Positions 15,901-41,405 of a stretch of 64,000 nt of DNA are shown one piece after another. Source of the DNA: Candidatus Cloacimonadales bacterium. Its GTDB lineage: Bacteria > Cloacimonadota > Cloacimonadia > Cloacimonadales > JAFGVF01. The translations under genes and the position numbers were made by a program. The notes under the pieces are model-generated. The model did not search any database and had not been told where the DNA came from. It saw only the letters and a list, made by a program, of their open reading frames with translations. The first letter of the stretch is position 1. The number at the start of each line of letters is the position of its first letter. Where the stretch lies: NCBI GenBank assembly GCA_963677495.2, contig CAXXOU010000004.1, forward strand, positions 960,001-1,024,000, given 5' to 3'.

Positions 15901-16480
15901 CTAACAAAACCGTGTTATCCCACTGTTTTCCCACTGTGCACGCACTGTGCACCCAGTGAAACAGTGGGTTGGCAGTGCCTTCACAGTGGGGACACAGTGC
16001 AAACACAGTGCGTTGATAGAATGTGCAGTAAAAGAGAGCTAAAAGGACAATAAACGCGGCTAAGTTATTGTAAATGGCACTGTGTATATCTCTTTCGGAC
16101 TTGCTCCGCAGCGAAGCGTGGGGCGAGAACGAAAACTTAGGAAAAGAGACTTCGAAGTACATTTCAGGAAGTCCGTTGCTTTATCAGGCCGACAAACTCC
16201 CTGAAATGCCGTAAGTTGTTGCAAATCGCGCTGTGTATGTATTCGGATATTGTTGCAATAGTGACCAAAGGGAGATAGGTGAATAGTGAAAAGTAGCAAT
16301 AATCCAATTCGTGACAAGACGCACCAACGCAGATGGTGCACTCCATAGTTGTAAGTTATTGCAAATCGCACTGCAAATGTCATCCTGAGTGGAATGAACG
16401 TAATGAAAAGAAGTGAATGAAGTCGATGGGTCGCTCGGATGGCTTTAGTGGATTTATGATAGAGTATTGACTTATCTTTT
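15901..16480. repeat. Modular non-coding mosaic, copy 1 (order A-B-C-D), with 11-bp-phased array at 15910-16010 and linkers at 16061, 16212, 16352
   Basis: Block-wise inverted similarity to 40770-41405; linker TAAGTTRTTGYAAATSGCRCTG x3. Confidence 0.9.
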
Positions 16481-16645
16481 TATGTTTTCCTATCGGAAAA
16501 TTGCTCTTCTTTAGTTGGGAGACTAAAGTTATCGGAGAGGTACTTCGACTGCGTTCGCAAAACTCACTTCGCTCAGTATGACGTGTTGGTACTCGGATTT
16601 GCATCAGCAAATCCCTTAACATTGTCACCCTGAGGGGAATGAAGG
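16378..16645. repeat. GTCATCCTGAG...CTTCGCTCAG(G/T)ATGAC-type palindromic repeats
   Basis: TGTCATCCTGAG at 16378 can pair with CTCAGTATGAC near 16572-16582; TGTCACCCTGAG at 16623; related ends at 40610 and 40857-40872. Confidence 0.6.
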
Positions 16646-16740
16646 CAGTTAAACGAATAGAAGTTGTTTATATATTGTTTGACAATATAATGCCCTAAAT
16701 TGTCTTGGAATATAAAATAAGATTTAGAATGAGGAAATTG

Positions 16741-17736
16741 ATGAAGCGTAAAGAAGTCGTATCTTTAGTACTTTTGATACTAGTGTTGGGTTTAGGGTTT
16801 TGGCAATATAAGAACAGGAAATATACAGATAAACGCAGTAGAATTATGTTAGATACTATCGTTGAGATATCAGTATCATCTCAACACAAAGATATTCTCC
16901 CGATAATTGAGAAAGGTTTTACGTTAGTTGAGCATTATGAGCAGAAGTTCAGTGAATATAGAGATAGTTCTCTAGTTTGGACTATTAATCATTCAAACGG
17001 CCATCCTGTAGATATAGATGCAGAAACTTATGAACTTCTTAAATACGCAGAACAGCTTTATAAAGATACGGATGGTGCTTTTGATGTGACAGTCGGTACA
17101 GTTGTGAATGCATGGGATTTTGATAATAAAAAAGTTCCTACAGAGACAGAACTGGCAGAAGCACTTAAGTACGTTGGCTTCGATAAGATTAAATATAATG
17201 AAAAAGAGATAATCGTACCTGCAGGAACAAAGTTAACATTTGGAGCCATAGCTAAAGGTTACATTTTAGATAGAGTTGCTGAAGAACTTGCTAAAGAGGA
17301 TATAGTTTGTGGATATATCACAACTAGAAGTAGCTATAGATCTTTTGGTGCTGAAAGACGTATTCAAAGGGTCGGTATCCAGCATCCAAGAAAGTTGAAT
17401 GAACTTGTTTCTATATTGAAACTAAAAGAGCAAGCGATTGGAACTTCCGGGGATTATCAAAGATATTTTGAGATTGATGATGTACGTTATCATCATATAT
17501 TGAATGCAAAAACCGGTAAACCTGTAAGAGATGTATTCTCGGTTACAGTAATAGCTGGAAATGCCTTTATCGCTGATGGATTGTCTACAGCTGTGTTTGT
17601 TATGGAACCTCAGAAAGCAATTGATTACATAAAATCAGTTGATAACTGTGAAGCAGTGATTTATCATCAGGATGGGGAAGAGATTATAGCTCTAAAAACT
17701 CTAGGAATGAAAGACTTATTAGAAGATGAAAAATAA
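16741..17736 (+). CDS. apbE: FAD:protein FMN transferase
   Basis: GAFDVTVG, GAIAKGY, GTSGDYQR, YHHILN, ADGLSTA motifs. Confidence 0.9.
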   Translation: MKRKEVVSLVLLILVLGLGFWQYKNRKYTDKRSRIMLDTIVEISVSSQHKDILPIIEKGFTLVEHYEQKFSEYRDSSLVWTINHSNGHPVDIDAETYELLKYAEQLYKDTDGAFDVTVGTVVNAWDFDNKKVPTETELAEALKYVGFDKIKYNEKEIIVPAGTKLTFGAIAKGYILDRVAEELAKEDIVCGYITTRSSYRSFGAERRIQRVGIQHPRKLNELVSILKLKEQAIGTSGDYQRYFEIDDVRYHHILNAKTGKPVRDVFSVTVIAGNAFIADGLSTAVFVMEPQKAIDYIKSVDNCEAVIYHQDGEEIIALKTLGMKDLLEDEK

Positions 17737-18502
17737 ACAAGATATCCAAAGTTTGCCTGATGAACGTAATGTTCATATTGATAAGGTCGGAGTTAAGGAT
17801 GTTAAGTATCCAATTATTGTAGATGATAAAATAAATGGAACACAGCAAACAATAGCTGACTTAGATATATATGTGCAACTTCCTCATCATCATAGAGGAA
17901 CACATATGTCACGTTTTCTGGAAGTCTTGAATGAATTCCACAAAGACTCATTAGTAGATAAGCTTCCTGAGTTTCTTGTAGAGATAAAGAAAAGACTTAA
18001 TGCTGAAGCTTCTTTTGTAAATGTACGCTTCCCGTATTTCGTTAGAAAGACTGCCCCTGTTTCAGGTATCAGTTCCTTACTAGACTATTCCTGTTTCTTT
18101 GAAGCAAGTCATAAAGATAAGTATGAGTTGATACTTGGAGTTGTTGTCCCAGTAACCTCATTATGCCCATGTTCAAAAGAGATTAGTGAGTATGGTGCAC
18201 ATAACCAACGCTCTCACATTACTATTAAGGTGAAGTTTGAAGAGTTTGTTTGGCTTGAGGACCTCATTACTATAGCAGAGGAGACAGCCAGTTGTGAAGT
18301 CTACCCACTTCTGAAACGAGTAGATGAGAAGTATGTTACTGAAAAAGCATATGACAATCCACGTTTTGTGGAAGATATAGTTAGAGAAGTCGCTGTGAGA
18401 CTTAGAGCGGATAAGCGTGTAACCGGGTTCAGAGTGGAATCAGAGAACTTTGAATCTATCCATAACCATAGCGCTTACGCATTTGTTGAGGAGAATTTTT
18501 AA
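17726..18502 (+). CDS. folE2: GTP cyclohydrolase IB
   Basis: RGTHMSRF, TSLCPCSK, AHNQRS, ESIHNHSAYA. Confidence 0.95.
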   Translation: MKNKQDIQSLPDERNVHIDKVGVKDVKYPIIVDDKINGTQQTIADLDIYVQLPHHHRGTHMSRFLEVLNEFHKDSLVDKLPEFLVEIKKRLNAEASFVNVRFPYFVRKTAPVSGISSLLDYSCFFEASHKDKYELILGVVVPVTSLCPCSKEISEYGAHNQRSHITIKVKFEEFVWLEDLITIAEETASCEVYPLLKRVDEKYVTEKAYDNPRFVEDIVREVAVRLRADKRVTGFRVESENFESIHNHSAYAFVEENF

Positions 18503-18507
18503 AACTA

Positions 18508-21042
18508 ATGATAAAGAATAGAACTAAAGACTTTACGCTCGATAACGGGTTTAAAGTCATACATACACAGGATAATAGTAGAGGTATTGTTGCCCTACAG
18601 GTTTACATCAAATGTGGCTCAGTGTGGGAATCACCTGAAGAAGCGGGATATTCTCACTTTATGGAGCATCTTGTGTTTAAAAGCACGACGAGTTATCCGA
18701 ACAACAGTTTAATGGATATTGCTTCATCTCTGGGTGGAGCAATTAATGCTTATACAGAATATGATTCAACTTGCTTCTATATTACGATCCCTTCCGAGTA
18801 TATTAGAGAGGGTGTTAAGATTCTTTCCGAACTTGTGCATTCAGCAAACTTCAATGAAAAGGAGTTCAAGTCTGAAAGACAGGTTGTAATTGAGGAGCTT
18901 AAACAGTATCAAAACGACCCGGAAGAGAACTTCATTGAGAAGATACCTGCTGTGTTCTTTGAACATAATCCCTATAGGAATCCGATTGTTGGGACAATGG
19001 AGAGTTTGAAGAGCTCTACACCTGAAAAACTGAGAGAGTTTTACCATAAACACTATCGTCCTGATAACTGCTTCTTTGTCGTTTCAGGTGATTACCAATT
19101 AGAAGAGTTGAACTCGATAGTAGATGATTACTTTGCTACCTGGAATTCTACAGACTCAGATGAGATTGTAATTAAACCGGAAGAGTTTCCTAAAGGATTT
19201 AAATACTCTTTCATTGAGAGCAAAATTAGAAAAGACCTAGTTGCATTTGTTGTGCCTGAGCCTTCTGATCTTCATCCTGATGCCCATTCTCACAATATGA
19301 CAATGAAGGCATTTGCTTCAGGGAAAAGCTCAATATTATGGAAACGACTTTATCTTCAAGAACAATTGGTTGATTCAGTTAAACTTTATTCATTCAGTGG
19401 TCGTAATGATGGTTTAGCAGCAGTGGTTGTATTCCCTAAGAAGAATAAGGATATACCATCAATATATAGAATCATTCTTGAAGAATTAGCAAGATTGAAG
19501 CGTTATGGACTAAGCAGTGAAGCTATTAGGAAGCATAGATTGGATCTTGAAAACTCATATAAATATGGGTTTGAGTTTATTGAAAGCCTTAGCTCAAGTC
19601 TTGGTAGTGAAGAGATACTTGGTGATTATAACTATCTTTATGAATATCCGGTCAAGATAGCACAAGTGAACTCTATGACTGTTAAGAAAGTGATTAACAA
19701 TCTTATCAATATAGAGCATACTCAGATCGCACATACAGGAAAAGTTAGTGTTGATGAAAATGAACTTCGTAAGATATATAACGAATTTTATGAGCATAAA
19801 GATGAAGAGATATCAACTAAGAAGTATGAAGAGTTTGAACTACCAAATGGTGTTACACTTCAGCTAAAGAAAGTAACAGGAAAGCCAACAGTAGGTCTTG
19901 CTGCATCATTCAAAGTCTCACAATTAGATGAACCTGCAGAACTTCGAGGTATCAATGCAATGACTGTTGCAATGCTTCAGTATGGTAATATTAAAAGAGA
20001 TTATGAATCATTATTGGAGTATTGTGTTGAGAATGGCATTAGTCTCACATGTGATCCTATGGTTGATTGTACAGTCATTAAGTCAAAATGCTTTAGCGAC
20101 AGATTATCTCAAACAGTAGCACTACTTGCTGATGTGATTGAGCAACCACTTTTCCCAATGAGTCATGTTAAACAGTTTAAGAATACTTGTCTTAGTGCTT
20201 TGGATCGTATCAAGGATTATCCGGCATCCATGGCACACAAGAAGTATAAAAAGCTTTTACTCGGTGATACAAGTAGGTATGTAAGCAGCATAGGTGAGAA
20301 GAAGCATGTTAAAGCTCTTACAAGGCAGAAAGTGATAGATTGGTATGATAAGTATTACAAGAATACTAAGATAAACATAGCTGTTGTTGGTGATATAGAC
20401 TTCTTGGAAGTAAAGCAGATGTTTGAGAAATATTTCAAGATTAAGAGAACTAAGCAAGGCAAGAAAAGAAGATTAAACAATGAAATAATCAACTTCGGTA
20501 CTAAAGTAATTGATACAAAACAGACTCAAGCAGTGATAAATTGCGGTGGAAAGAGCTGTTCCTATTCACAAAAGGAGTATAATACTTCTTTCTTTGTTCT
20601 TTCTCAAATCATTGGTGGAGATATGAACTCCCGTTTGTTTGAACTTCTTCGAGAGGAGCATGGTCTTGCTTATAGTGTAAGTTTTGAGAACAACTCATTC
20701 TGTGACTTTGGATACTTCAATGTGAACTGCATTACTGACAGAGATAGTGATAAGTTTGCTTTGAAATTAATTAAAGAAACTTTGCTTGACATTGCAGTGA
20801 ATGGTGTGACAGAAGAGGAGTTGGTTATAGCTAAAAACTATATTAAAGGCCAACGACTAATCGGGGAAGAGAGCATGATGACACAAGCAAAGATTATTAG
20901 CTATCTGAAAGCTCTCGGTTATGATTACACATATTATCTAACAAGAGATAAAAGATTAGAGGATGTTACCGTTGAAAGCATCAAGCATGTTGCTTCACTA
21001 TACTTCAAAGCCGGTAACTTCAATACGCTAATCTACAAATAA
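18508..21042 (+). CDS. M16 (pitrilysin-family) zinc metallopeptidase
   Basis: HFMEH inverted zinc motif, INAYT, C-terminal SRLFELLREEHGLAY. Confidence 0.9.
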   Translation: MIKNRTKDFTLDNGFKVIHTQDNSRGIVALQVYIKCGSVWESPEEAGYSHFMEHLVFKSTTSYPNNSLMDIASSLGGAINAYTEYDSTCFYITIPSEYIREGVKILSELVHSANFNEKEFKSERQVVIEELKQYQNDPEENFIEKIPAVFFEHNPYRNPIVGTMESLKSSTPEKLREFYHKHYRPDNCFFVVSGDYQLEELNSIVDDYFATWNSTDSDEIVIKPEEFPKGFKYSFIESKIRKDLVAFVVPEPSDLHPDAHSHNMTMKAFASGKSSILWKRLYLQEQLVDSVKLYSFSGRNDGLAAVVVFPKKNKDIPSIYRIILEELARLKRYGLSSEAIRKHRLDLENSYKYGFEFIESLSSSLGSEEILGDYNYLYEYPVKIAQVNSMTVKKVINNLINIEHTQIAHTGKVSVDENELRKIYNEFYEHKDEEISTKKYEEFELPNGVTLQLKKVTGKPTVGLAASFKVSQLDEPAELRGINAMTVAMLQYGNIKRDYESLLEYCVENGISLTCDPMVDCTVIKSKCFSDRLSQTVALLADVIEQPLFPMSHVKQFKNTCLSALDRIKDYPASMAHKKYKKLLLGDTSRYVSSIGEKKHVKALTRQKVIDWYDKYYKNTKINIAVVGDIDFLEVKQMFEKYFKIKRTKQGKKRRLNNEIINFGTKVIDTKQTQAVINCGGKSCSYSQKEYNTSFFVLSQIIGGDMNSRLFELLREEHGLAYSVSFENNSFCDFGYFNVNCITDRDSDKFALKLIKETLLDIAVNGVTEEELVIAKNYIKGQRLIGEESMMTQAKIISYLKALGYDYTYYLTRDKRLEDVTVESIKHVASLYFKAGNFNTLIYK

Positions 21043-21052
21043 GGTTTATATA

Positions 21053-23875
21053 ATGAAAGAAAAGATAATCATTAAAGGTGCAAGTGAACATAATCTAAAG
21101 AAGATTGATGTAGTGATTCCAAGAAACAAACTTGTAGTGTTTACAGGGGTTTCAGGTTCAGGTAAATCATCTCTTGCATTTGATACACTTTACGCAGAAG
21201 GACAAAGACGCTATGTAGAGTCTCTTTCTGCATATGCACGCCAGTTCCTTGGGCAGATGGAGAAACCTAAAGTTGATTATATCGAAGGTTTATCTCCTGC
21301 TATCTCAATTGAACAGAAAGCAGCAAGTAAGAACCCTCGTTCAACAGTTGGTACTGTAACAGAGATTTATGACTACCTAAGAATCCTATTCGCAAGAGTA
21401 GGTGTACAGCATTGTCCTGAATGTGGTAAAGAGATTGGTGCTCAGTCAGTAGATCAGATGATAGAGCATATAATGAAGCATGGGGATAAGACTAAACTTC
21501 AAATCTTAGCACCTTTAGTACAAAACAGAAAGGGTACTCATGCCGAGGTGATTCAGGAAGCTAAGGATGAAGGATTCGCTCGTATCAAGATTAATGGGGT
21601 TGTAAGACAACTCGATGAAGAGATTGTCCTTGATAAGAAGAGTAAACACACAATCGAAGTTGTGGTTGATAGAATTGTATTGAAAGATGGGATAGAGGGT
21701 CGTTTAACTGACTCATTAGAAACTGCTCTTAAGCTTGCTGATGGAATGGTTAAGATTGACTATGTAGAAGAGGAACATGAGGAACTGTTATCAGAGCAAT
21801 ATGCTTGTTCTGATTGTGGAATTGGTTTTGAAGAGTTATCGCCACAACACTTTTCATTTAATAGCCCGATTGGTGCTTGCCCTGAATGTAATGGTCTTGG
21901 TTATAAACTTGAAATAGACCCAGAGTTGGTTGTTCCTAATCCTAAACTCTCATTACGTAGAGGAGCTGTAGCAGCTTGGGGACCTTTAGGCAGGAAAACA
22001 GATAGCTGGACTTATCAGCAGATTCTTGCTTATGCTAAAGAACTGGATTTCTCACTTGAAACTCCATGGAAAGACTTACCAAAAGCAATACAGGATTTCC
22101 TATTATATGGTAAGAAGCGCAAAAAATTCCGTGTTAAATGGGAACGTAATGGTGCTATCTATGAGTTTGATTCTAAGCATGAGGGTATAATCAATACACT
22201 TGCCAGAAGAATGAAGGATACAAACTCTGAAGGTGCAAGACGCTATTACATGCGATATGTCAGTGATAAACCATGTTCTGTTTGTAACGGAACTAAGCTT
22301 AAACCTCAAAGTCGCTCAGTCCTCATAGAGAAAAAGAACATTACTGACGTAACTTCAATGACTATTCAGGAAGCTGAAAACTTCTTCACAGGTTTAAATC
22401 TTGAAGGTAACAAACTGATTATTGCGGAAGAAGTACTTAAAGAGATTAATGCAAGACTCGGTTTCTTAATGTCTGTTGGATTGCATTACCTTAACCTTGA
22501 TAGAAGATCTCCAACACTTTCCGGTGGTGAATCCCAAAGAATCAGATTGGCAAGTCAGATTGGTTCGCAGCTTGTAGGAGTTATGTACATTCTCGATGAA
22601 CCAAGTATTGGTCTTCATCAGCGTGATAATGATAGACTTATTCATATGCTTACAAAGCTTCGTGACCTTGGAAACACAGTCATTGTGGTTGAGCATGATG
22701 AAGATACAATCAGAACTGCTGATGAGATTCTAGATTTCGGACCACGAGCCGGTGTTTTTGGTGGTGATATTGTAGCACAAGGTTCACTAAAGAAGATTCT
22801 TCATAATAAGAAATCACTTACAGCCCAGTATCTGAGTGGAAAGCTAAGTATTGATGTTCCGGAAGAGAGACTTACACCGGGAGAGCATAAACTTGTTATC
22901 AAAGGTGCAAAGCACAATAACCTTAAAAATCTTGATGTAGAGATTCCTCTCGGTCTCTTTGTTTGTGTTACAGGTGTTTCAGGTTCAGGTAAGAGTTCAC
23001 TTATTAACCAGACACTTTATCCTGCATTGAACAATCACTTCTACAAGTCTTCAATGAAGATAGGTAAACATGAAGAGATTCTCGGATTAGAGCATATTGA
23101 TAAGATTATAAGTATCGACCAGCAACCTATTGGTCGTACTCCACGTTCTAATCCTTCAACATATATTAAGCTTTTTGACCATATTCGTAACCTTTTCGCT
23201 GAGCTTCCTGCTTCTAAGATTAGAGGTTATAAACCGGGACGCTTCTCTTTTAATGTAAAGGGTGGACGTTGCGAATCATGTCAGGGAGCAGGTGTAAAGC
23301 AGATTGAGATGCATTTCTTATCTGATGTGTTCGTTACTTGCGAAGTTTGTAAAGGAAAGCGTTATAACAATGAGACTTTGAGTGTGAAGTATAAAGGTCT
23401 TAGTATCTCAGAAGTGCTTGATCTTGATGTACAACAGGCGATTGAATACTTTGAGAACTTCCCACCGATAAAGCGTAAACTTCAGACACTACATGATGTT
23501 GGACTTGATTACGTAAAACTTGGTCAACCATCGACAACTCTTTCTGGTGGTGAAGCCCAGAGAATCAAGCTGGCAAAAGAGCTTAGTAAGACAAGTACAG
23601 GTAACACATTATATGTCCTTGATGAACCTACAACAGGTCTTCATTTCGATGATATAAACAGACTGATGAAGGTTCTTCAGCGTTTAGTAGCAATGGGTAA
23701 CAGTGTGATTGTTATCGAGCATAATATGGATGTTATTAAAACAGCAGATTATATTATTGACCTTGGACCTGAAGGTGGAGATGGTGGTGGAACAATCGTC
23801 ACAACCGGAACACCGGAAGAGGTTGTGAAGTGCAAGAAATCATATACAGGTAAGTATTTAAAGAAACATTTATAG
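21053..23875 (+). CDS. uvrA: Excinuclease ABC subunit A
   Basis: Two GVSGSGKSS Walker A motifs, [16 protein letters not shown], zinc-finger CxxC pairs. Confidence 0.97.
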
Positions 23876-23896
23876 AGAATTATAGAGGAGATATAG

Positions 23897-25459: not shown

Positions 25460-25460
25460 A

Positions 25461-25871
25461 GTAGGACATGCTACCAGCTTGTCCGCTTAGCGAAGCTAAG
25501 CATATTCCCCTCTCGTAGAGGGGTGCCGTTTTAACGGTGGGGTGTTTCTTCCTTCGAGGTAACCATTTGCAAGGTTTTCAACCATTCCAAAGGTACAGAT
25601 TTTAGTGTTTCAGATATCAGCCCTTGGGCAGAACATGAATAGCTATGGGTGCAAACATTATAATATTTTAGTGTTTCAGATATCAGCCCTTTGGGCTGAA
25701 CATGAATAGCTATGGGTGCAAACCCATAGAAATGAGACATAAACAAACCCCAGCCCTTAGGGCTGAATAATTGCTTTATACACACATCTTATATTTTTTA
25801 TACGTGGAGACACCTAGGGGCTTAAGAAAGTTTATGATAGAGCATTTAACCACCAGATGAATCTGGTGGCT
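25461..25871. repeat. Cluster of REP-like palindromes including a ~58-bp tandem duplication
   Basis: GTAG-REP 25461-25501; CCCCTCT hairpin 25504-25546; duplication 25599-25656 and 25665-25723; three-hairpin unit 25684-25770; CCACCAGATGAATCTGGTGG near 25850-25869. Confidence 0.75.
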
Positions 25872-26220: not shown

Positions 26221-26428
26221 AAAATACCAGAATTCCATCAGACATTCCTCAAACGATTTCATACTATTATTCACTATCTTACTATTATTCTTAAATACCT
26301 TAACTCCCAATTTGCACCTAATCCAATTGCTGTCAATGGCAGTGAGAAATGGTACACGATGGCAGTGAAAAGTGGTACAAAACTGCCAACCTTTAAAAAT
26401 GACTACTTCAAGACAGTTTGGAGTAGGT

Positions 26429-27904
26429 ATGATTGGAGTAGAAGTGTATCATTCAATAAAAACTATGCATAAGCAAGGGCATAGTCAGCGTAAGATCGCA
26501 GAGGAGTTGTCTCTATCAAAGACAACAGTAGGTAAATACATAAATATGACACTTGATGAGTTCATGGAACTAATAAACAATAGCATTCGTGAAAGCAGTT
26601 TTGCCATATGTGAGCAATATGTCCGCGAAAGGCTTAGCAAATATCCACGATTAAGAGCTAGTGTACTATATTTAGAAGTTAAGAAAAAGTTCCCTGAGAT
26701 AAAAGCAAAAGACAGAGCTTTCCGAGATTTTGTTCGTAAGCTAAAGCAGACTTATCCTGTCGATAAATACCGTAATTATGCAGTAATCGAGACGGCTCCC
26801 GGTGTTCAGGTTCAAGTTGATCCAGGTGAGATGAAAGTAGTTTTGGGTAATAAACGTCAAAGAGTTTATTTTATAGTTTTTGTGCTTTCCCACTCGCGTC
26901 AAAGCTATGTCCATTGGAGCACAACACCATATAACACATCAAGGTTTATTGAAGCTCATCGTGAAGCTTTTATCTATTTTGAAGGTATCCCTTCAGAGTG
27001 TGTTTACGACCAGACAAAGCTTGTAGTAATACAGGAACGCTATCGGGAAGTAATCTTAAATAATCAGTTCCATCAGTTTGCAGCAAAAACGGGCTTTCAT
27101 CCTCATGTATGCGAAGGCTATGATCCACAAAGCAAGGGTAAAGTAGAGCGTAATGTCTCAGAAGTAAAGCATGGCTTTATGTATGGCAAAGAGTTCAAAG
27201 ACCTGGCAGACCTGCGTTCACGCGGACTTGAGTGGCTTTTACACTTTAACGGCAGAACCCATGGCACAACCCGTAAAGTACCATCAGAAGTATGGCAAGA
27301 AGAGAGGTTAAAGCTAAAAGATATTCCAGAGTTTATCTTCACTTTAGAAGTTCGTAATGCAGATAAAACAGGCTTAATCTCGTATGAGGGTAATAAGTAC
27401 TCTGTTCCATTAGAGTATCAGCGAAAACAGGTATATGTGCAAAAAGAAAAGAGCACTTTAGTGGTGATGGATATTTATACAAGAAAGGAAATCTGCCAAC
27501 ATGAGCTATGCACAGAAAAAGGCAAAATCATCAAAAACACTAATCATTATCGGGATTTTACGGTAGTGCTACAAGAGCTTATTGAGCGAGTAAAGGATGA
27601 GATGAGTGAATATATCCAAGGAGAAGAACTAATCCAGAGGCTTGTTAATGATAACCCTAAAATAGCAAGGGATCAGTTGAGAGCCTTAAGCAAGTTTAAG
27701 CGTAACTATGAAACAGATGTATGGGAGTCAGTGCTTCCTGAGGTAATGACTCTTTCGCATGTAAAGGCAACAGCCATAGAGAAGCTTCTGAATGCAAAAG
27801 TAAGACAAATGAAGCTAAATGAATTATCAGAATCAGAACCACAACAAGACTCAGAGAGTTCATTAATAGAGCGCTCATTAGATGACTACATGAAGGTGTT
27901 ATAA
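26429..27904 (+). CDS. istA: IS21 transposase
   Basis: N-terminal HTH; DDE region QVDPG, VYDQTK, KGKVER; ATG 26429 after GGAGTAGG. Confidence 0.92.
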   Translation: MIGVEVYHSIKTMHKQGHSQRKIAEELSLSKTTVGKYINMTLDEFMELINNSIRESSFAICEQYVRERLSKYPRLRASVLYLEVKKKFPEIKAKDRAFRDFVRKLKQTYPVDKYRNYAVIETAPGVQVQVDPGEMKVVLGNKRQRVYFIVFVLSHSRQSYVHWSTTPYNTSRFIEAHREAFIYFEGIPSECVYDQTKLVVIQERYREVILNNQFHQFAAKTGFHPHVCEGYDPQSKGKVERNVSEVKHGFMYGKEFKDLADLRSRGLEWLLHFNGRTHGTTRKVPSEVWQEERLKLKDIPEFIFTLEVRNADKTGLISYEGNKYSVPLEYQRKQVYVQKEKSTLVVMDIYTRKEICQHELCTEKGKIIKNTNHYRDFTVVLQELIERVKDEMSEYIQGEELIQRLVNDNPKIARDQLRALSKFKRNYETDVWESVLPEVMTLSHVKATAIEKLLNAKVRQMKLNELSESEPQQDSESSLIERSLDDYMKVL

Positions 27905-27905
27905 G

Positions 27906-28637
27906 ATGATAGAGATAACTAAAACATACATCAAAAGGGCTCGTTGTACTCATATTTTGAATACTCTTGAAAGTGCAGTTTTAGAAGCAGAGAAACAGAA
28001 TATGACTTATCTGGAGTTCGTACATTATCTATTTGAAAAAGAGAACTCAGGAAGGAATCAAACCAATATCAACAGAAGACTTAAACAGGCTCACATCCCG
28101 GTAATAAAGACCTTTGATGAGTTCGACTATGCTTATCAACAAGTAATAACCAAAAGACAAGTAAAGGAGTGGAAGAACTTTGTCTGGCTGGAGCAGAGGA
28201 GGAATATAATTTTAATGGGACCTCCGGGAGTAGGTAAGACTCATGTTGCAACAGCACTCAGTTATGAAGCAATAAAGGCAGGATATAAGGTGGTGTTTTA
28301 TAATCTGAACAACCTTATCGAAGAACTTGTACTAGCTGAAGCAGATAACAACATAGATAAATATCTAAGCAATATAGCCAAGAATGATCTGATAGTTATA
28401 GATGAGATGGGGTATCTTCCTCTCCAGACAAAGGCAGCTAATCTGTTCTTTAGACTCATCCATCTCTTATACGAATTTAGATCAGTAATCATAACATCGA
28501 ATAGGTTGTTTAATGAATGGGGAGCTATTTTTAACGACAATGTGATAGCAACTGCTATTCTTGATAGATTACTCCATCACTCACAACCAATTACAATGCT
28601 CGGAGACAGCTTTAGACTAAGGAATTTTCAAAAATGA
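27906..28637 (+). CDS. istB: IS21 helper AAA+ ATPase
   Basis: GPPGVGKT, LIVIDEMG, ITSN, ILDRLLHH. Confidence 0.95.
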   Translation: MIEITKTYIKRARCTHILNTLESAVLEAEKQNMTYLEFVHYLFEKENSGRNQTNINRRLKQAHIPVIKTFDEFDYAYQQVITKRQVKEWKNFVWLEQRRNIILMGPPGVGKTHVATALSYEAIKAGYKVVFYNLNNLIEELVLAEADNNIDKYLSNIAKNDLIVIDEMGYLPLQTKAANLFFRLIHLLYEFRSVIITSNRLFNEWGAIFNDNVIATAILDRLLHHSQPITMLGDSFRLRNFQK

Positions 28638-28705
28638 AGACTGTACCATTTTTAAATGCCAAACTGTACCAATTTAAAATGCCATTGACACCAATTGCCA
28701 TCCAT

Positions 28706-28751
28706 CATAACGAGTTTCTAACGGGGAGCTAACGGGAAGCTAACGGGGAGC
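28706..28751. repeat. 11-bp tandem array (CTAACGGGGAG)
   Basis: TAACG at 28708, 28719, 28730, 28741. Confidence 0.85.
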
Positions 28752-31975: not shown

Positions 31976-32030
31976 ATGATTAATTTAGGATTAAAAATTA
32001 GAATAAATGATATGAAAGGACTAGGTAAAT

Positions 32031-33389: not shown

Positions 33390-33396
33390 TTAGAAA

Positions 33397-33431
33397 CAGT
33401 TTCAGGCTACTGATTTCAGTAGCCTGAAACT
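33397..33431 (+). terminator. Long perfect hairpin after the 153-aa gene
   Basis: AGTTTCAGGCTACTGA-ttt-CAGTAGCCTGAAACT, stem of at least 15 bp. Confidence 0.65.
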
Positions 33432-33698
33432 ATACATAGACTCCTGATGGTTTTAGACGTTAAACCCCTATAAATACTTACAACTCTTTAAGAGCGATTG
33501 TTTAATAGCCCCATGCGACAATTTGACGCTTGAGGTTTAAGATCTTGGACGTTTTTTTTGCACTGAAGGGGTGTAGGGAGCTTCAATGTGTTAATCTTTC
33601 GCCCCTATAGGGCTACAATCTTCTTTTATTACATTACCACATGCCAAAGCATGTGGCTATTGAACAGACGCCTCTTCAAGGCTAAAGCAGGCTAAGAT

Positions 33699-34072
33699 AG
33701 CTATAATCGGGAAGCCAATCGTGCATAGTAACTAGTAATGACCTGTATAATCATAAACACAGCTCTAAGTTCAAATGTGTGATTTCTAAGTTCTGTCAGT
33801 GGAAGCTGCCGACTGTGTCGGCACAGCAACTCAGGAGAGTCGCAGTACATTCGTAGTGCGAGTGTCCCCACTTGCACATAGCTCGATAGAGCTATAACCG
33901 GGAAGCCAATCGTGCATTGTAACTAGTAATGACCTGTATAATCATAAACACAGCTGTATGCTCAAATGTATGATTTCTAGATTTAGGTCAGTGGAAGCTG
34001 CCGACAGTGTCGGCACAGCATCAGTCTTCGTTTAAAACTACGCCCCGACAGGCCTCAGGAGAGTCGCAGTAC
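33699..34072 (+). repeat. Tandem REPIN/MITE-like elements (truncated copy 33699-33848, full copy 33853-34072 with a 33-nt insertion)
   Basis: Near-identical GGGAAGCCAATCGTGCA...GTCAGTGGAAGCTGCCGAC...GGAGAGTCGCAGTAC in both copies. Confidence 0.85.
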
Positions 34073-34078
34073 AATATG

Positions 34079-34107
34079 AAAAAGCCCGACATTATCGGGC
34101 TTTATTT
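34079..34107. terminator. Terminator of the guaA operon (likely bidirectional)
   Basis: AAAAAGCCCGA-catta-TCGGGCTTTATTT. Confidence 0.8.
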
Positions 34108-34124
34108 CGTGATAATCTAAATGT

Positions 34125-35663
34125 TTATTCCCATTCGATTGTTGCTGGTGGCTTAGAGCTTATATCATAAACAACTCTGTTCACACCTTCAACTTCATTG
34201 ATGATTCTATTTGAAACTCTCTTCAAAAACTCGTAAGGGAACTCTGTCCAATCTGCTGTCATACCATCGGAGCTGTTCACTGCTCTTAAAGCACAAACGT
34301 TTTCATAAGTTCTTTCGTCACCCATAACACCAACTGATTGGATTGGTAACAACACAGCAAATGCCTGCCATGTCTTGTTATAGAGGTTCTTAGCATAGAG
34401 CTCAGAGATGAAGATATGATCAATGTTCTGAAGTAATTCCACTTTCTCAGGAGTGATATCACTAATGATACGAACCGCTAACCCGGGACCCGGGAACGGA
34501 TGACGGGCAACTAAATGCTCAGGTAATCCGATAGTTCTACCAACTGCTCGTACTTCATCTTTGAAGAGTTCTCTTAATGGCTCAACAAGCTTAAGATTCA
34601 TCTTCTCAGGTAATCCACCCACATTGTGGTGTGATTTGATTGTAGCTGAAGGACCTTTAAAAGATACAGATTCAATTATATCCGGATATAAAGTTCCTTG
34701 TGCCAAAAACTTAGCATTTGGATGCTTCTTTGCTTCTGCATCAAATATATCTATGAATGTATTACCAATAATCTTTCTTTTCTTTTCTGGGTCAGTTACA
34801 CCTTCCAACTTTGTCAGGAATGTATCACCAGCTCTGACTGTGTTAAGCTCCATACCGAACCCATCTCTAAAGATCTGTTCAACATCTTCAACTTCATGCT
34901 TTCTAAGAAGACCTGTATCAACAAAGATAGGAATAAGCTGGTCTCCAATAGCTTTATATAACAAGGCTGCTGCAACAGAAGAATCAACACCACCACTAAG
35001 ACCAAGGATAACCTGATCAGTACCGACTTGCTCTTTTATCTCTTGTATTGTAGTATCAATGAATGAATCAGGTGTCCAATCAGGAGTAATACCGGCAATA
35101 TCGATCACGAAATTCTTAAGCATATCCAAACCGTTCACTGAGTGAACAACTTCCGGATGGAATTGGAATGCGAAAATAGGTTTTGATTCATGTGCAATAG
35201 CTGCAAATGGTGAGTTGCCTGTATAGGCTATACGATGGAAACCTTTAGGAAGCTGCTCTAAAGCGTCACCATGACTCATCCAAATCTCCTCTTCATCAGA
35301 CAGACCTTTGAAGATTGAGTTGTGGTCTTCGATCTTAATCTTAGCATATCCATACTCTTTCTTATCAGATTTAGTAACTTTAGCACCATTAAGATGTGCT
35401 AAAAGCTGCATACCATAGCAAACTCCAAGAATAGGTAAATCCATTTGAAGAATTCTCTTATCAGGAATCGGAGCATTCTCAGCTGTTACACTGAAAGGTG
35501 AACCGGATAAAACAATAGCTTTAGGAGCTTTTGCCAACACTTCATCATAACTAACATTAAAAGGAACAATCTCACAATAAACACTGAGCTTTCTGATAGA
35601 CTTAGCTATCAACTGAGTGTACTGTGAACCGAAATCCAGAATTAGAACCATCTGTTTAGTCAT
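34125..35663 (-). CDS. guaA: GMP synthase (glutamine-hydrolysing)
   Basis: [46 protein letters not shown]. Confidence 0.97.
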
Positions 35664-35675
35664 TTTAGCCTCTAT

Positions 35676-36317
35676 TTATATATTTTTTCCAAAACCTAAG
35701 AACGGATTAGCAACTTCTTCATCTCCGATAGTCGATTGCCCACCATGTCCCGGTAGAACAATAGTATCTTCAGCAAGTTTGAAGAGCTTATTTTTTATTG
35801 ATTCACCGAGAGCTTCCATAGAACCACCCGGAAGGTCAGTACGACCTATACCCATCTGGAAGAGTGTGTCTCCACTGAAAAGGATATTCTTATGTAATAG
35901 ACAAATACCACCTTTAGTGTGACCGGGAGTATGAATAACTTTTAATGATTCTGCACCTAAATTAATCTCATCTCCATCAGCTAACTTCTTGGATGGATTT
36001 GGTGCAATAACATATTGTCCCATAAGAGAGCTAAGATTTAGCTCGGGATCAGAAAGCATAGAAGCATCAAGCGCATGAATCATAATCTCTGCACCCAACT
36101 CCTCTTGAAAATATCCAACTCCGCCAATGTGGTCAGCATGACCGTGGGTTAAAACTATATACTTAAGCTTAAGCTCTTTTTTCTGAATCTCAATAAGAAG
36201 ATTTCTATTAGGTGCTGCCGGGTCTATTAACATTGCGTCTTTCGAATCTTTATCCCAAACGAGGTAAGTATTAGTACCGTAAGAGTCTAACAATATGTGT
36301 CTTGTATATTTAAGCAT
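35676..36317 (-). CDS. MBL-fold metallo-hydrolase (glyoxalase II-like)
   Basis: THGHADH, HTPGHT, SGDTLF, PGHG. Confidence 0.9.
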   Translation of the reverse strand: MLKYTRHILLDSYGTNTYLVWDKDSKDAMLIDPAAPNRNLLIEIQKKELKLKYIVLTHGHADHIGGVGYFQEELGAEIMIHALDASMLSDPELNLSSLMGQYVIAPNPSKKLADGDEINLGAESLKVIHTPGHTKGGICLLHKNILFSGDTLFQMGIGRTDLPGGSMEALGESIKNKLFKLAEDTIVLPGHGGQSTIGDEEVANPFLGFGKNI

Positions 36318-36319
36318 TT

Positions 36320-37312
36320 CTATCCTTTAATCCTGTATTTATCTAATTCATTCTCACTAAATGCATCGACTTCTATCTCTTTGTCAAGTGCCTTATCAAA
36401 GCCATAGTTTATGACAGCACTTTTACCTGCTTTCTTAACATAGAACAGCAAAATCTTAGCTGCAACTTCAATCTCTTCTTGAGTTACGGCGTCATTGTCA
36501 GTTACAGTAACAGCTATTGGTCCCGGTACAACAGCTACTTTCAATAAAAGCTCTTTAGTTACAGCTTTTGAAAGTCTTTCATTCTCATCTTTAGTTCTTC
36601 CGATGATAAGTTTTGTCTTATCACTAAGCCGGAAGTTTCTTCCGAGAGCAATGAACTTAATCTGATAGAGATTCATCTGCTCATAGTTAAATAAATCCTT
36701 GAGAGAACGTGAGAATTGCTGATCAGTAAGTAAACAACCACCTGCCGGTGTCTGATAATCTTCTAATCCATATTGCACAGCTAGTTCCATCTGACGTTTA
36801 CGAGAACGTCCTTGAATGTCCATCATCTCCTCTTTAACAACCCAACCTTCACGAATAGGAAGCGTATCATTCAATAGTCTTTGTGAAAGAGGTCTTACTA
36901 TAAGGTCTTTTATTCCACTTGTCTTCGCAACTGCATTCAGTGAGTTACGATTCTGTGACATTGGTCTTTGACCTAAAACTTCACCAGAAATCACAAAGTC
37001 AGCTCCATATTTTTCCAATGCTGCACCGGCACATTTAAACATCAACGCGTGACAATCAATACACGGGTTCATGGTTTTGCCATAACCATATTTAGGATTC
37101 TTAACCATCTCCAGATGTATATCTGAAATATCCATGACTTCAATCTCAATACCTGCTTGTCGGGCAGATTCTTCTGCTTTAGAAAGAGAGAAGAAGGGAG
37201 TGTCGAAGAATACAGGGATAACGTCATAACCTAATTTACGCATGAAGAGGACTACCAGAACACTATCTAGTCCACCGGAAAAAAGAGATATAGCTTTATG
37301 TTTTCTTTTCAT
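36320..37312 (-). CDS. ThiI/MnmA-like PP-loop tRNA sulfurtransferase (no THUMP domain; DUF814-like C-terminus)
   Basis: SGGLDS, NPCIDC, GEVLGQRPMSQ, PAGGCLLT. Confidence 0.8.
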   Translation of the reverse strand: MKRKHKAISLFSGGLDSVLVVLFMRKLGYDVIPVFFDTPFFSLSKAEESARQAGIEIEVMDISDIHLEMVKNPKYGYGKTMNPCIDCHALMFKCAGAALEKYGADFVISGEVLGQRPMSQNRNSLNAVAKTSGIKDLIVRPLSQRLLNDTLPIREGWVVKEEMMDIQGRSRKRQMELAVQYGLEDYQTPAGGCLLTDQQFSRSLKDLFNYEQMNLYQIKFIALGRNFRLSDKTKLIIGRTKDENERLSKAVTKELLLKVAVVPGPIAVTVTDNDAVTQEEIEVAAKILLFYVKKAGKSAVINYGFDKALDKEIEVDAFSENELDKYRIKG

Positions 37313-37459
37313 TGTAGTTCCTTAATGTTAATTATCTGATTGAAAATATCTTAACACTGTTACTCAATTTTGCAAATTAGATAATCTGTCAAGTATGAAG
37401 GCAGAAATAACTTGCACTATTTCTTCAACTAATCAATATTAATGCTTGGAGGTAATAAA

Positions 37460-38434
37460 ATGGATTTCAAATATTATAAGCCCAGGATAGTCGTAAGTAA
37501 ATGTTTAGGATTCTGTAACTGCCGTTTTGATGGAGCAATACTACACTCGAGTACAATTGAAAAACTTAGAGATTATGCAGAGATCGTAACATATTGCCCT
37601 GAAACAGAAATTGGGCTACCAACTCCAAGAGAAGCTCTAAGAATGATTCGCCCTAAAGGAGCAGAGGAGTTGTCTTTAGTAACATCATATAGTGGAGACG
37701 ATTACACGGATAAGATGAGAGATTATGCTGAGAAGATAGTCACAGGTCTTAGTGAGATTGATGGATTTGTACTAAAAAATAGGTCACCGTCTTGTGGAAT
37801 CAAAGATGTTAAAGTATATCCTTCATCAGGCAAGGTGATGATAAAAGAGGAGAAAGCTGTTGGATTCTTTGCACTTGAAGCTCAAAAGCAGTTTGCTAAC
37901 TCTATCTTTGAGGATGATGGAAGACTTACTAATTTCAATATTAGAGAACACTTTTTAACAGCTATTTTCACTAAAGCACATTGGAGAGATGTTGTTAAGT
38001 CTGGTGAGTATAAAAGAGTTGTTGAGTTTCAGTCAAACTATAAGTATCTTTTCATGAGCCTCAGTCCAGATCATCTAAAAAAGCTGGGTAAAATAGTGTC
38101 TTCTCATAATAAAGGCAGCTTTACTACTGCATGTGAAGAGTATGAATCAGTTCTAAGTGATCTACTGAAAGTTACACCCACACCGGGTAAGATAATCAAT
38201 GTAATACAACATATCTTTGGTTACTTTTCAAAGCACCTTTCTGAGCCTGAACGAGAACTATTCTTAGATTTGGTTGGGCAATATAAAGCAGGAAGAATCC
38301 CTTTATCTGTTATCAGATATTTACTCTATTCATATGCAAAGAGATTCAATGAGGAGTATATTTTAACTCAACGTTTCTTTGCTCCATATCCAGAAACAAT
38401 GATTTCTATAACTGACTCAGGAAAGGGGAGATAG
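37460..38434 (+). CDS. DUF523-DUF1722 fusion (YbgA/RudS-like thiouridine desulfidase)
   Basis: VSKCLG..CRFDG, CPETEIGLPTPRE, LKNRSPSCG; C-terminal NVIQHIFGYF...PYP; ATG 37460 after GGAGG. Confidence 0.85.
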   Translation: MDFKYYKPRIVVSKCLGFCNCRFDGAILHSSTIEKLRDYAEIVTYCPETEIGLPTPREALRMIRPKGAEELSLVTSYSGDDYTDKMRDYAEKIVTGLSEIDGFVLKNRSPSCGIKDVKVYPSSGKVMIKEEKAVGFFALEAQKQFANSIFEDDGRLTNFNIREHFLTAIFTKAHWRDVVKSGEYKRVVEFQSNYKYLFMSLSPDHLKKLGKIVSSHNKGSFTTACEEYESVLSDLLKVTPTPGKIINVIQHIFGYFSKHLSEPERELFLDLVGQYKAGRIPLSVIRYLLYSYAKRFNEEYILTQRFFAPYPETMISITDSGKGR

Positions 38435-38436
38435 GG

Positions 38437-39207
38437 TTAGATCAGCTTCTCCTTTTTCAGAATATTATGTAATCTTCTGAATGAGATATAGTGTTGTGAT
38501 AGAACTTTCTCATTATATGTAAGTGTGAAAGTTCCGTATGGGGAAGGGGCTTTTCGTGCCTCTTCCGGAGTTGTGAGTTCGTGAACTTCAATATCTATGT
38601 TCCAAGCTTTTATCTCATCCCTTAACTCATCAACCATCCTAGCTACCCAGGGACATTGTTTACTATAAAACAGATGAAGTCCCTTATAATCTTTCAAGCA
38701 AGCAGAGTTATCTAGTATCTTCGGTGCCTCAGCTTCAGTGAATTTCTTTGCAAGCAGAGTATACTTAGGTTTAGCTGTTTCAATCACTTCATACCCATTC
38801 TTTAGGAATAGATCTTTCTTAGCCATAAACGTATCATCAGATGTCAGTACAGCTATACCTTTTAAGCCTAACTCTTTAGTATCTTTTTCACACTCCTCAA
38901 TAAGCATCTTACCGAGTCCGACTCCCTGATTCTTTTTTGCACCAATGAAAATACAATGTATAAACATGTAGTCATCTGCTTCCACTGCTCTCCAGTTATA
39001 TTTTCCGGGGACATATTCTATGAAACCAGCTGCTTTCTTAACTCCATCCTGATAAGCAAGTTTGATTGTGTAACCTTCTTTAAATCTTTGATTTAGCCAT
39101 TCAATCTTCAAGTGATATGTAGGGTGCTTTTGGTTTATGTAGCAGATAACATCTTTATGCTCAAGCATATTCTCTTCAGTTATTTTTATAAAGTGGAAAT
39201 TACTCAT
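38437..39207 (-). CDS. GNAT acetyltransferase with YoaP-like C-terminal domain
   Basis: GFIEYVPG, YMFIHC, QGVGLGK, QCPW, APSPY; ATG 39207 after GGAGG. Confidence 0.8.
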   Translation of the reverse strand: MSNFHFIKITEENMLEHKDVICYINQKHPTYHLKIEWLNQRFKEGYTIKLAYQDGVKKAAGFIEYVPGKYNWRAVEADDYMFIHCIFIGAKKNQGVGLGKMLIEECEKDTKELGLKGIAVLTSDDTFMAKKDLFLKNGYEVIETAKPKYTLLAKKFTEAEAPKILDNSACLKDYKGLHLFYSKQCPWVARMVDELRDEIKAWNIDIEVHELTTPEEARKAPSPYGTFTLTYNEKVLSQHYISFRRLHNILKKEKLI

Positions 39208-39267
39208 AAATCCTCCAAAAAAGAAGGTGCCCTGTTTCAAGAGCACCAATCTTGTAAATGCAAAAAC

Positions 39268-39753
39268 TTACATGTTAATAACTTTGATTGAACCATCAGG
39301 TTTAACAAGGTTGAGAGTGTTATCACTATAAGTTCCAATCACTTTAGTTTCGTTGTTGCTCTTAAGTTCAAGGTTAGATGTTTCTTGGTTGTATACAAGT
39401 TCAAAAGATGCATCTGTACCCATTTGAACAGCTTTAAGGCTATTCTCTGTTACTTCAATCTTGTACTCAAGTCCGTCAATCTCAATGGTTTGACCATCAA
39501 GATCATTGTAAGCAAGTGGGTTAGAACCTGTCCAGAACTCAATTAAGTTTAAGAAGCATACGTCTATAAAACCTGCTACTTCATACACAGGTAATATTGT
39601 CATACCCCAGAACAGAATCTGTTCAACGAACTTGTTATCTGAAACGTTATCATTCCATTGATATACTTTTTTAGTTAAGGCAAAGTTACCGAAACAACCT
39701 GTTAGAAGTGAAACTACAATAAGTAATGAGACTAGTTTAATAATTCTTTTCAT
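39268..39753 (-). CDS. DUF3332-family lipoprotein
   Basis: Lipobox LTGC; FGNFALT...NLIEFWTGSNP. Confidence 0.8.
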   Translation of the reverse strand: MKRIIKLVSLLIVVSLLTGCFGNFALTKKVYQWNDNVSDNKFVEQILFWGMTILPVYEVAGFIDVCFLNLIEFWTGSNPLAYNDLDGQTIEIDGLEYKIEVTENSLKAVQMGTDASFELVYNQETSNLELKSNNETKVIGTYSDNTLNLVKPDGSIKVINM

Positions 39754-39817
39754 CTGTTTTCCTCCAGTTATTTGTTCATATTTATGCTTTGTTAACGAAT
39801 AAGTCAATCAAATAGTG

Positions 39818-40516
39818 CTATCTCTTCATATAGAATCTTTTCGTTTCCGGTGCAACTTTCTCTAATGAATATCGTAACATAGTTCGTGGCATCTCTTTAT
39901 AGAATTTATCAAGAAATGGAGTTAACGATGCTTCATTACGCTTCCCTATCTCTTTGAGCATCCATCCGACACCTTTTTGGACAATGTCTTCAGGGGTGTG
40001 CAGAAGTATCTCAGCGATCTTGAAGGTTGTCTCGAACTCTGCGTGCTTTATGAAATAATGTGTTGCAACTATTGCAACTCTTTGATGCCATATATTCTCA
40101 TGATTTGCCAGTTTTATCAATAAATCATGATCTTTATCATATAGCCAAGCACCGAGTAGATGTGATGCACTCATATCCACGAGGTCCCAGTTATTTACAT
40201 AGTCAAGATTCTTCAGATACAAGTCGATTATTTGTTCTTTTTCAGTTGAACGTTTGGGTTTAAATCTCATAACAAGCATTTGTAATGCAACAGAGCGATA
40301 CTCATGAATTGGTTCTTGTAGCATTTGTTCAATCTCTTCTAAAGGTAGTTTGTAATATTTCTTAATAACAGGTTTCTGATTTGGTAAAGTAACACCAATA
40401 AAAGCATCTCCTTCACCATAACCACCTTTATAAGTCTTATAGAATTTACCCAATGCTTCCACACGTCGCTTGTTTGCTTTGAGGAGCAGGGCCTTCTTAA
40501 CATCAGATATGCTCAT
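39818..40516 (-). CDS. DNA alkylation repair protein (AlkD-like)
   Basis: GYGEGDAFIGV, NNWDLVD, QKGVGWMLKEIGKR, MPRTMLRY. Confidence 0.88.
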   Translation of the reverse strand: MSISDVKKALLLKANKRRVEALGKFYKTYKGGYGEGDAFIGVTLPNQKPVIKKYYKLPLEEIEQMLQEPIHEYRSVALQMLVMRFKPKRSTEKEQIIDLYLKNLDYVNNWDLVDMSASHLLGAWLYDKDHDLLIKLANHENIWHQRVAIVATHYFIKHAEFETTFKIAEILLHTPEDIVQKGVGWMLKEIGKRNEASLTPFLDKFYKEMPRTMLRYSLEKVAPETKRFYMKR

Positions 40517-40769
40517 TGTGCTCTCCTGATTTTTGATATTATGAAACTGCTAGGTTGCTTTGGATAAGTCAACTAATAATTACCTGTTTCTTGTATGTTC
40601 ATTCAAGATTGTCATCCCGATCGAGTGAGGATACGAACCGACTACTGTAAGGAGGAGCTCGCTTACCTTCCGAAAGTTGCTCAAAAATACAAACCACGAA
40701 AAGCACTAAAAGGGGATTAGTTTCATTATTTTTCGTGGATAGATGTAAAACAAAAGTTTGAGTACAATA

Positions 40770-41405
40770 AAGATAAGTCAATACTAGAAATGTTATTTCA
40801 CTAAAGCTAACCGAGCTATCCATCGACTTCATTCATTCCGTTTCTCTCATTTCAGCTTCGCTCAGGGTGACATATCAGGAGCAGTCACCAGTGCGAGTTT
40901 ACGAGCTTGGGGAAATGCTGAAATTACAATAATCTATCTCTAAACAAACATGTTGCATTTCAGGGAGTTTGTCGGTCTGTTAAGGCAACGGACTTTCTAA
41001 AATGCTCTTTGGAGTCGGCATCTTATGGTTTTCGTCCTCGCCCCACGCTTCGCTGCGGTGCAAGTCCAAAAAAGGGCATATTTAGTGCAATTTGCAATAA
41101 CTTACAACTATGGAGTGCACCATCTGCGTTGGTGCGTCTTGTCACGAATTTGATTATTGCTACTTTTCGCTATTCGCCCATCTCCCTTCGGTCGCTATTG
41201 CGACAGCTAATGAAATGCATACGCAGTGAGTTTCCCAACAACTTAGCTACATTTCATGCCCCTTTTGCTCTCTTTTACTGCCCTTTTTATCATCGCACTG
41301 TGTACGCACTGTGACCCCACTGTGAAGGCACTGCCAACCCACTGTTTCACTGGGTGCACAGTGCGTGCACAGTGGGGAAACAGTGGGTTGACTGTGTTTT
41401 GGTAG
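40770..41405. repeat. Modular non-coding mosaic, copy 2 (inverted; order A-C-B-x-D), with 11-bp-phased array at 41296-41396
   Basis: Reverse-complement blocks of 15901-16480; linkers at 41224-41245, 41083-41104 and a degenerate one at 40889-40909. Confidence 0.9.

Follow-up and report, generated by a model that had tools for sequence, protein, structure and literature searches.

A dispersed array element with helically spaced sites and hairpin-repeat cassettes in a Candidatus Cloacimonadales genome

The closest described counterparts of the element reported here are two kinds of bacterial repeat mosaic. Bacterial interspersed mosaic elements (BIMEs; BIME-1, BIME-2 and atypical forms), as portrayed in the sections of PMC3333891 and PMC6006769 consulted, consist of tandem units of repetitive extragenic palindromic (REP) dimers with a conserved linker, occur in chimeric combinations, and go together with a REP-associated tyrosine transposase (RAYT, or TnpA-REP). 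The REP families flank Y1 genes, and an integration host factor (IHF)-like motif lies in a linker. The same portion of PMC3333891 describes C|T cleavage in linkers and strand transfer by RAYT, and sets out models for tandem amplification and for chimeric BIMEs. In Neisseria's intergenic mosaic elements (NIMEs), according to extracts of PMC1797815, a short constant repeat (dRS3) brackets 50-150-bp spacers (RS) of several families; the arrays are dynamic, carry insertion sequence (IS) insertions and are hypothesised to be a recombinase target. We analysed an element of comparable layout, two copies of which lie in a 64,000-nucleotide stretch of a Candidatus Cloacimonadales genome (GCA_963677495.2, contig CAXXOU010000004.1, positions 960,001 to 1,024,000; hereafter the window).

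The element shares with BIMEs the tandem units of REP dimers with a conserved linker, the chimeric combinations, the REP families beside Y1 genes and the IHF-like motif in a linker. Unlike the BIMEs of those accounts, it has a 170-bp leader phased at 11 bp, its slots hold several unrelated REP families, its unit lengths step by helical turns, and its ladder of linkers is present without REPs in related genomes; in contrast to BIME-1, the linker with its IHF-like arm lies between dimers and not between a REP and its inverted partner (iREP). With NIMEs it has in common the constant repeat bracketing spacers of several families and the dynamic arrays with IS insertions. It departs from them, as the extracts present them, in that its linker is non-palindromic, unfolded and in one orientation, whereas dRS3 is a 20-bp inverted repeat, and in that its arrays are short (1–4 sites), leader-anchored and mostly not syntenic between species. 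By analogy with the parts of these accounts used here (PMC3333891, PMC1797815, PMC3184786, PMC6006769), the element would resemble a BIME/NIME mosaic in its working. No published description of the element itself was found in the literature searched, supplements and subscription papers lying outside its coverage.

Further comparisons are offered by the accessory sites of the Xer targets cer and psi, by the attachment (att) arms of integrases with their Xis and IHF sites, and by the layouts of integrons and of clustered regularly interspaced short palindromic repeat (CRISPR) arrays. As in the Xer and att systems, a phased accessory stretch of ~170–190 bp and an IHF-like motif stand beside a site of ~29 bp; unlike them, the element has no dif-like dyad and no cognate integrase, and it is present in 66 chromosomal copies. 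A leader followed by repeat-delimited, reorderable units is common to the element, integrons and CRISPR arrays. A preliminary description of the window had called its logic integron- or CRISPR-like while matching neither, and that judgement holds. There is no IntI, the delimiting site does not fold and the cassettes carry no open reading frames (no attC model was applied), whereas compared with CRISPR arrays the linkers vary at 5–6 of 29 positions and the spacers recur in the genome rather than being unique. A search confined to the window found no cas domain among its 47 proteins.

Copy number, site and helical spacing

The element is dispersed through the source genome (G000). BLAST over the whole genome (3.4 Mb, 4 contigs) recovered 66 full copies of its leading part, module A. 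Each copy comprises an array of CACTG/CAGTG words phased at 11 bp, a linker 72 bp further on, and then zero to three units of cassette plus linker. The array words are 98.8% conserved across copies versus 90.8% for the positions between them, the distance from the last CAGTG to the CACTG of the linker is 72 bp in 60 of 64 copies, and the left end gradually loses conservation between ~185 and 203 bp upstream of that CACTG. Among 72 linker arrays, 23 have one site, 42 two, six three and one four. The copies show a weak strand bias (42/66, p=0.04); in 48 of 64 the left end of module A is turned towards the start of a gene, and the direction of the downstream gene is random (31 vs 33). The two inverted copies first noticed in the window are thus two of 66 lying on both strands, so their inverted orientation is incidental. 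Their placement in divergent promoter regions was correct as to the flanking genes (nifJ/apbE and alkD-like/gyrB), but only 24 of 64 copies genome-wide lie between divergent genes.

The constant site is 29 bp long, not ~22 bp as previously described. A profile built from 64 first linkers, with hits counted at ≥18 bits, gave 129 hits genome-wide versus none in block-shuffled DNA; 65 lie directly behind module A, nearly all others fall in A arrays, and four are unexplained orphans. Positions to the left of the 29 bp track the upstream module, as position 15 does weakly; positions 16–29 track neither side, and those from 30 onwards track the downstream module. The left arm matches what we take to be the IHF consensus with one or two mismatches in 123 of the 129 linkers. 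All linkers within an array have the same orientation, and they show no dyad, a fold of 0 kcal/mol and no sigma-70 match on the + strand. They also lack the ATAA-6-TTAT inner core of a presumed dif-like site, called on the consensus as we assume it to be, at C4:1046138 near the GC-skew switch, about 22 kb past the window end. At one fetched locus (L025, around 1500; L-numbers denote fetched loci) two linker-like sites are inverted, unlike every other array. An origin of the linker as a target-site duplication was rejected, as linker pairs within a locus differ at 5.4 positions versus 5.7 between loci (p=0.04), which is too weak.

The array is present in all three congeneric genomes (G001–G003), where the first site lies mostly 71–72, 82–83 or 61–62 bp after the last CAGTG and is either of the type found in the source genome (X) or a variant (Y). 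The 50-bp interval between array and site is only 40–60% identical at equal length in four cross-species pairs. G002 and G003 carry further sites, whose AT-rich spacers show hardly any REP hits, and the site-to-site gaps in the relatives are 67/68, 78, 86–88, 96–99 and 108/109 bp. The gaps in the source genome are 107, 138–142 (27 cases), 150–152 (24 cases), 184, 194, 200, 201 and 340 bp. When period (10–11.6) and offset were both left free, the 14 spacers of the relatives were in phase with R=0.86 (p=0.00025; p=0.005 for 13 collapsed classes), and all 15 length classes together gave a best period of 10.52 with an offset of about +3 (R=0.67, p=0.006). A range for gaps fixed beforehand then took in all 12 of the new gaps obtained from 40 further loci. 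Other non-coding direct repeats, used as a control, showed no phase (35/62, or 24/48 distinct periods, vs 47% expected).

It is thus the geometry that is conserved and not the spacer sequence. Three 127-bp intervals are 41–50% identical at equal length while their sites are 92% identical. At eight G003 loci the array itself stands between two sites 194 bp apart, and the copies of the source genome retain a C-A-C-T vestige at 194 (32, 32, 43 and 44 of 59). Captured DNA as a source of spacers was considered and rejected: the spacers of a five-site G003 array matched only site-adjacent sequence in the four genomes, of which G003 is 72% complete.

Window copies, cassettes and exchange

Copy 1 lies on the + strand. 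Its module A (15885..16060) consists of the fading left end, the phased array (15921..16010) and the 50-bp length-fixed interval; CACTG stands at 15921, 15932 and 15943 and CAGTG at 15954, and after an 8-bp step CAGTG recurs each 11 bp over 15962–16006. Site 1 (16061..16089, 29 bp), which includes the array word CACTG, is followed by cassette B (16090..16211; halves b1x and b2; 151 bp linker to linker), site 2 (16212..16240; 35.5 bits), cassette C (16241..16351; halves c1 and c2; 140 bp linker to linker), site 3 (16352..16380; 30.0 bits) and module D (16378..16583), a TGTC-tagged, CGTC-REP-like palindromic pair that is free-standing elsewhere in the genome. This order and the linker positions had been read correctly in the preliminary description.

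Copy 2, on the − strand, begins with module A (41246..41420; array words 41385–41296), which is 85.7% identical to that of copy 1, and continues with site 1 (41217..41245; 26.2 bits), cassette C (c1 and c2; 41105..41216; 141 bp linker to linker), site 2 at the C|B junction (41076..41104; 21.5 bits), cassette B (b1x and b2; 40955..41075) without a trailing linker, the REP-like half e2 (40881..40916) and module D (40610..40872). Here the earlier reading was right in the succession of A, linker, C, linker, B, an extra segment and D, but its degenerate linker at 40909 sits within e2 (40916–40881), a half also found free. The CACTG of this e2 is 194 bp from that of linker 2, an in-phase distance, and may be a stand-in site; e2 behind a linker contains CACTG in 10 of 16 cases versus 6 of 68 elsewhere, counted over copies that are not independent.

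The opposite order of B and C in the two copies is real, but it is not a reciprocal swap: B of copy 2 has no trailing linker, and it is 92.6% identical to B at a third locus of the source genome, C4:1154747, against 80.6% to B of copy 1. That third locus has the same C-linker-B order as copy 2. An assembly chimera, which the repetition of the modules and the absence of any contig spanning a whole copy among the matches listed might suggest, is extremely improbable as the origin of the order swap. The C|B junction of copy 2 is crossed without mismatch by a 78-nt short-read contig (41042–41119) at about single-copy depth, found in the listed pieces of three of four short-read runs, all four from one sample that is possibly the source of the assembly; the third locus repeats the order with its own substitutions, and alleles differ between the copies. 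In copy 1, linkers 1 and 3 are spanned by short-read contigs (linker 3 by contig 16337–16476), and linker 2 had no exact spanning piece among the matches listed.

Each of the 57 segments between linkers joins two hairpin repeats, with b1, b1x, c1, e1 or f1 as the 5′ half and b2, c2, e2 or f2 as the 3′ half; the cassettes are non-coding and 110–120 bp long. No half is confined to the linker arrays: each has 12–62 free hits, and the free halves almost never have a linker; e1/e2 and f1/f2 are inverse partners. In the source genome, a RAYT-like Y1 gene at C2:350454 is surrounded by tandem arrays of b1, which is related to the window half b1x, and another at C3:76655 has e1/e2 on its flanks. Since the halves also stand alone and RAYT-like genes have two of the families at their flanks, the cassettes are dimers of REP-like repeats and not the dedicated units that they had been taken for. 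No RAYT-like gene flanked by b2, c or f was found, except for one A array beside C4:1048609. Module D and many B cassettes start with TGTC, listed as a variant of CGTC repeats in the excerpt of PMC3733652 used, and c, e, f, b2 and c2 carry no clear GTAG/CGTC tag. B and C had been described as hairpin-rich; each does contain two separate hairpins, but as DNA they fold no better than shuffles (z −1.4 and −0.6). One locus from the Cloacimonadota contig matches (L073) has a b2-like hairpin in its spacer.

The module orders seen are B-C (copy 1), C-B (copy 2 and C4:1154747), F-B and B-F. Across the linker, 36 classified cassette-to-next junctions show 11 upstream/downstream combinations (association 0.26), compared with seven half-combinations among 54 cassettes for the junction inside (association 0.61); unclassified neighbours (34/129 downstream, one upstream) do not enter the tally. 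The linker is therefore the main exchange point and not the sole one, and halves also swap inside cassettes, so that the expectation that breakpoints coincide with the linker holds in part. Near-identical tandem duplicates occur at three loci. Linkage among A copies is down to what free recombination would give after a few bases and decays with distance over the whole element, with r2 of 0.019 beyond 50 bp versus 0.016 under free recombination and 65% four-gamete violations. A haplotype that would foretell which cassette comes first was considered and rejected (p=0.055; same-type nearest neighbours in 26/57 vs 21.6 expected).

Proposed working and alternatives

We favour, with about even confidence, the explanation that the dispersed element is a platform for one putative double-stranded-DNA-binding protein, its slots being duplicated and swapped through recombination whose resolution falls mostly in the site. 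The word common to array and site, together with the helical spacing, leads us to infer a single protein acting on double-stranded DNA at a defined face. It would bind array and distal sites alike along a single face of the helix, and an IHF-like protein perhaps bends the left arm of the site. Extra sites would mark length-constrained slots, which in the source species would be filled by REP dimers, and only slot lengths in phase would persist, through selection on the copy or on its spreading ability. Template switching between the 66 similar copies, or gene conversion among them, could produce new orders, probably with the hairpins assisting and possibly with RAYT cleaving CACT at its C|T, as has been suggested for BIMEs; a dedicated cassette integrase would not be needed. 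Since the relatives have the ladder without REPs, RAYT cannot be its origin. The usual view of BIME and NIME mosaics is one of single-strand or RNA hairpin features whose linkers are loose in size, whereas helical-turn spacing of a constant site over four genomes despite spacer turnover points to a double-stranded nucleoprotein geometry beneath the REP mosaic. The 29-bp site would offer a precise handle on the protein behind the 11-bp arrays and on the growth and reordering of linker-delimited arrays.

Several points weigh against this platform. Its DNA-binding protein is putative, the Y-type sites of the relatives have no IHF-like arm, and the additional sites seem dispensable, given that 23 of 72 arrays have one site. 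RecA-type exchange works poorly on substrates with mismatches at 5–6 of 29 positions, which is how far the linkers differ from one another; stacking two different cassettes would therefore need further help. Recurrent mutation during a star-shaped expansion could also account for the low linkage, and the short reads come from a single sample. The 12 held-out gaps represent three length classes (127, 138 and 194; chance about 0.1), two of which stand at the lower edge of the window set for gaps, and the analyst chose both the null ranges of the Monte Carlo test and the way in which lengths were merged into classes. Both RAYT-like proteins match the REP-associated tyrosine transposase model NF047646 at 66 and 74 bits, below the NCBIfam cut-off of 80. 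The one A site shared with relatives, described below, could hold a founder copy rather than a homogenised one.

Alternatively, the site could be a recombination core of a dedicated mini-cassette system, in which a short protein-bent loop of two direct sites would release a circle of spacer plus site for reintegration, the array would be the accessory stretch, comparable to that of cer/psi or to att arms, and XerC/D or an unrecognised enzyme would be the catalyst. Phase dependence is typical of short-loop recombination, and two direct sites synapsing in a short bent loop would explain the phase rule, so that phase and junctions would both be accounted for. Units that finish with the site and are hardly ever found outside arrays, the 11 junction types at the linker, the array as a 194-bp unit between two sites in eight G003 loci, the behaviour of position 15 versus 16–29, and XerC/D-like genes in all four genomes of the genus are consistent with such a system. 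We nevertheless consider it unlikely. The source genome encodes only two tyrosine recombinases, with XerD and XerC as best hits, and no resolvase and no reverse transcriptase; of the co-occurring enzymes first proposed, XerC/D-like and RAYT-like/Y1 genes are thus present and a reverse transcriptase is not. The linker lacks a dyad and the dif-like core, gaps as small as 67 bp leave very little length for a circle, spacers of equal length at 41–50% identity suggest ongoing length selection beyond a rule of formation, and no autonomous copy was found in the viral contigs, phages or plasmids searched. A related possibility, to our minds doubtful to the same degree, is a new class of recombination system: accessory proteins would form a filament over the 11-bp array and the phased sites and so let a host recombinase, XerC/D-type or unrecognised, loop out and reintegrate double-stranded mini-cassettes of 67–200 bp, the array unit being one such cassette on which REP hairpins hitch-hiked. 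Traced short-read contig joints, which matched other genomic copies, contained no circle junction, and contigs drop rare variants; circles, if they exist, would make this a new minimal cassette system. Linker-mediated excision and reinsertion, as the preliminary description had it, accordingly keeps the linker as a real combinatorial junction and is otherwise a minority possibility, given the breakpoints inside cassettes and the lack of an integrase, resolvase or reverse transcriptase.

The cassettes could also be an ordinary BIME-type mosaic, with RAYT cutting single-stranded DNA at the linker C|T and amplifying or transferring REP dimers, the linker a passenger from the end of module A and the spacing incidental. 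The 14 Y1 genes of the source genome, two of them flanked by cassette halves, would suit it, as would the weak strand bias and the cleavage, strand-transfer and chimera models in the part of PMC3333891 cited above. We regard it as distinctly unlikely, because a phasing of 10.5 bp does not follow from single-strand chemistry, the linker is almost never found on free REP halves, and G002 and G003 have multi-site ladders whose AT-rich spacers give almost no REP hits; the strand bias may simply follow gene orientation, given that module A has its left end at a gene start in 48 of 64 copies. It is very unlikely that the site is a promoter or RNA-processing signal, with the array as upstream activator track and the cassettes as small RNAs. 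The 61/72/83-bp spacing does resemble what we presume to be the face-of-helix dependence of activators, X sites hold a TTGCAA hexamer, and Y sites look like what we take to be the ECF promoter AAAC-N16-(C/T)GTA. There is however no + strand sigma-70 match at the linkers, which are unstructured and variable at 5–6 positions, the downstream gene direction is random, and nothing in the window matched Rfam.

Distribution, candidate partners and neighbouring repeats

The array was not found by BLAST in 57 other genomes of the order, nor by pattern search in eight genomes of the family; its matches comprise 21 genome contigs, all Cloacimonadota, and two metagenome matches. The orthologous apbE and gyrB regions of G001 have no module A, and by flanking genes none of 16 G001 loci (15 distinct) lies within 2 kb of a copy in the source genome. 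At the place that module A occupies in the window, upstream of gyrB, G001 has an array of another 11-bp family with the word CCCGAG (L014 940-1060). One A site is common to the source genome, G002 and G003 on both flanks, and the source copy there is 86% like its own paralogs versus 70% like its orthologs.

Besides its 14 Y1 genes, the source genome has four IS110 and 17 IS21 copies and one HU-like and one IHF-like gene. The XerD/XerC-like pair reach the integron integrase model TIGR02249 at 138 and 119 bits against a cut-off of 265. Several candidate partners were tried and rejected. A 23-member family of ~150-aa proteins has one member within 1.5 kb of an A array, genes for secreted proteins are beside module A in 22/65 cases vs 136/537 (p=0.18), and HTH_17 or OmpR-type domains show no genus-specific expansion. 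IS110 is absent from G001 and G002, and two of three loci read start at another array family and none at the linker. Two IS110 copies (L090 1150-1350 and L092 1150-1350) begin at or in the CCACGG/CCGTGG array family, which is a possible bridge-RNA target of IS110. Most IS21 copies are inside repeats, several of them in or beside A arrays, which they split; window 26331–28690 is one of the 17.

An origin-avoiding chromosome organiser was also considered: none of the 66 copies lies in two origin-proximal stretches (C1:562k-986k and C3:150k-541k) to which 122 of the 548 long gaps belong (p=5e-5, post hoc). Avoidance is not conserved, since G001 has arrays ~55 and 170 kb from dnaA, and the idea was dropped. 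Other arrays and REPs are present in both stretches.

At least five other 11-bp-phased array families with other words occur in the source genome (31, 31, 17, 16 and 6 copies), mostly without an IHF-like linker; one example is in the window at 28708–28751. The six-copy family ends in facing 9-mers (C1:231709, C1:292390, C3:134482 and C3:196491) that resemble what we take to be the DnaA-box consensus. At C1:99224-99640 a linker-cassette array stands behind a different 11-bp array family and its first linker is decayed, while at C3:5988 the left end of module A is joined straight to a cassette and linker, the array being deleted. The window has other tandem REP-like units at 33699–34020 (period 191/192) and 25599–25723 (period 66/67), and the 191-bp period recurs at eight loci genome-wide.

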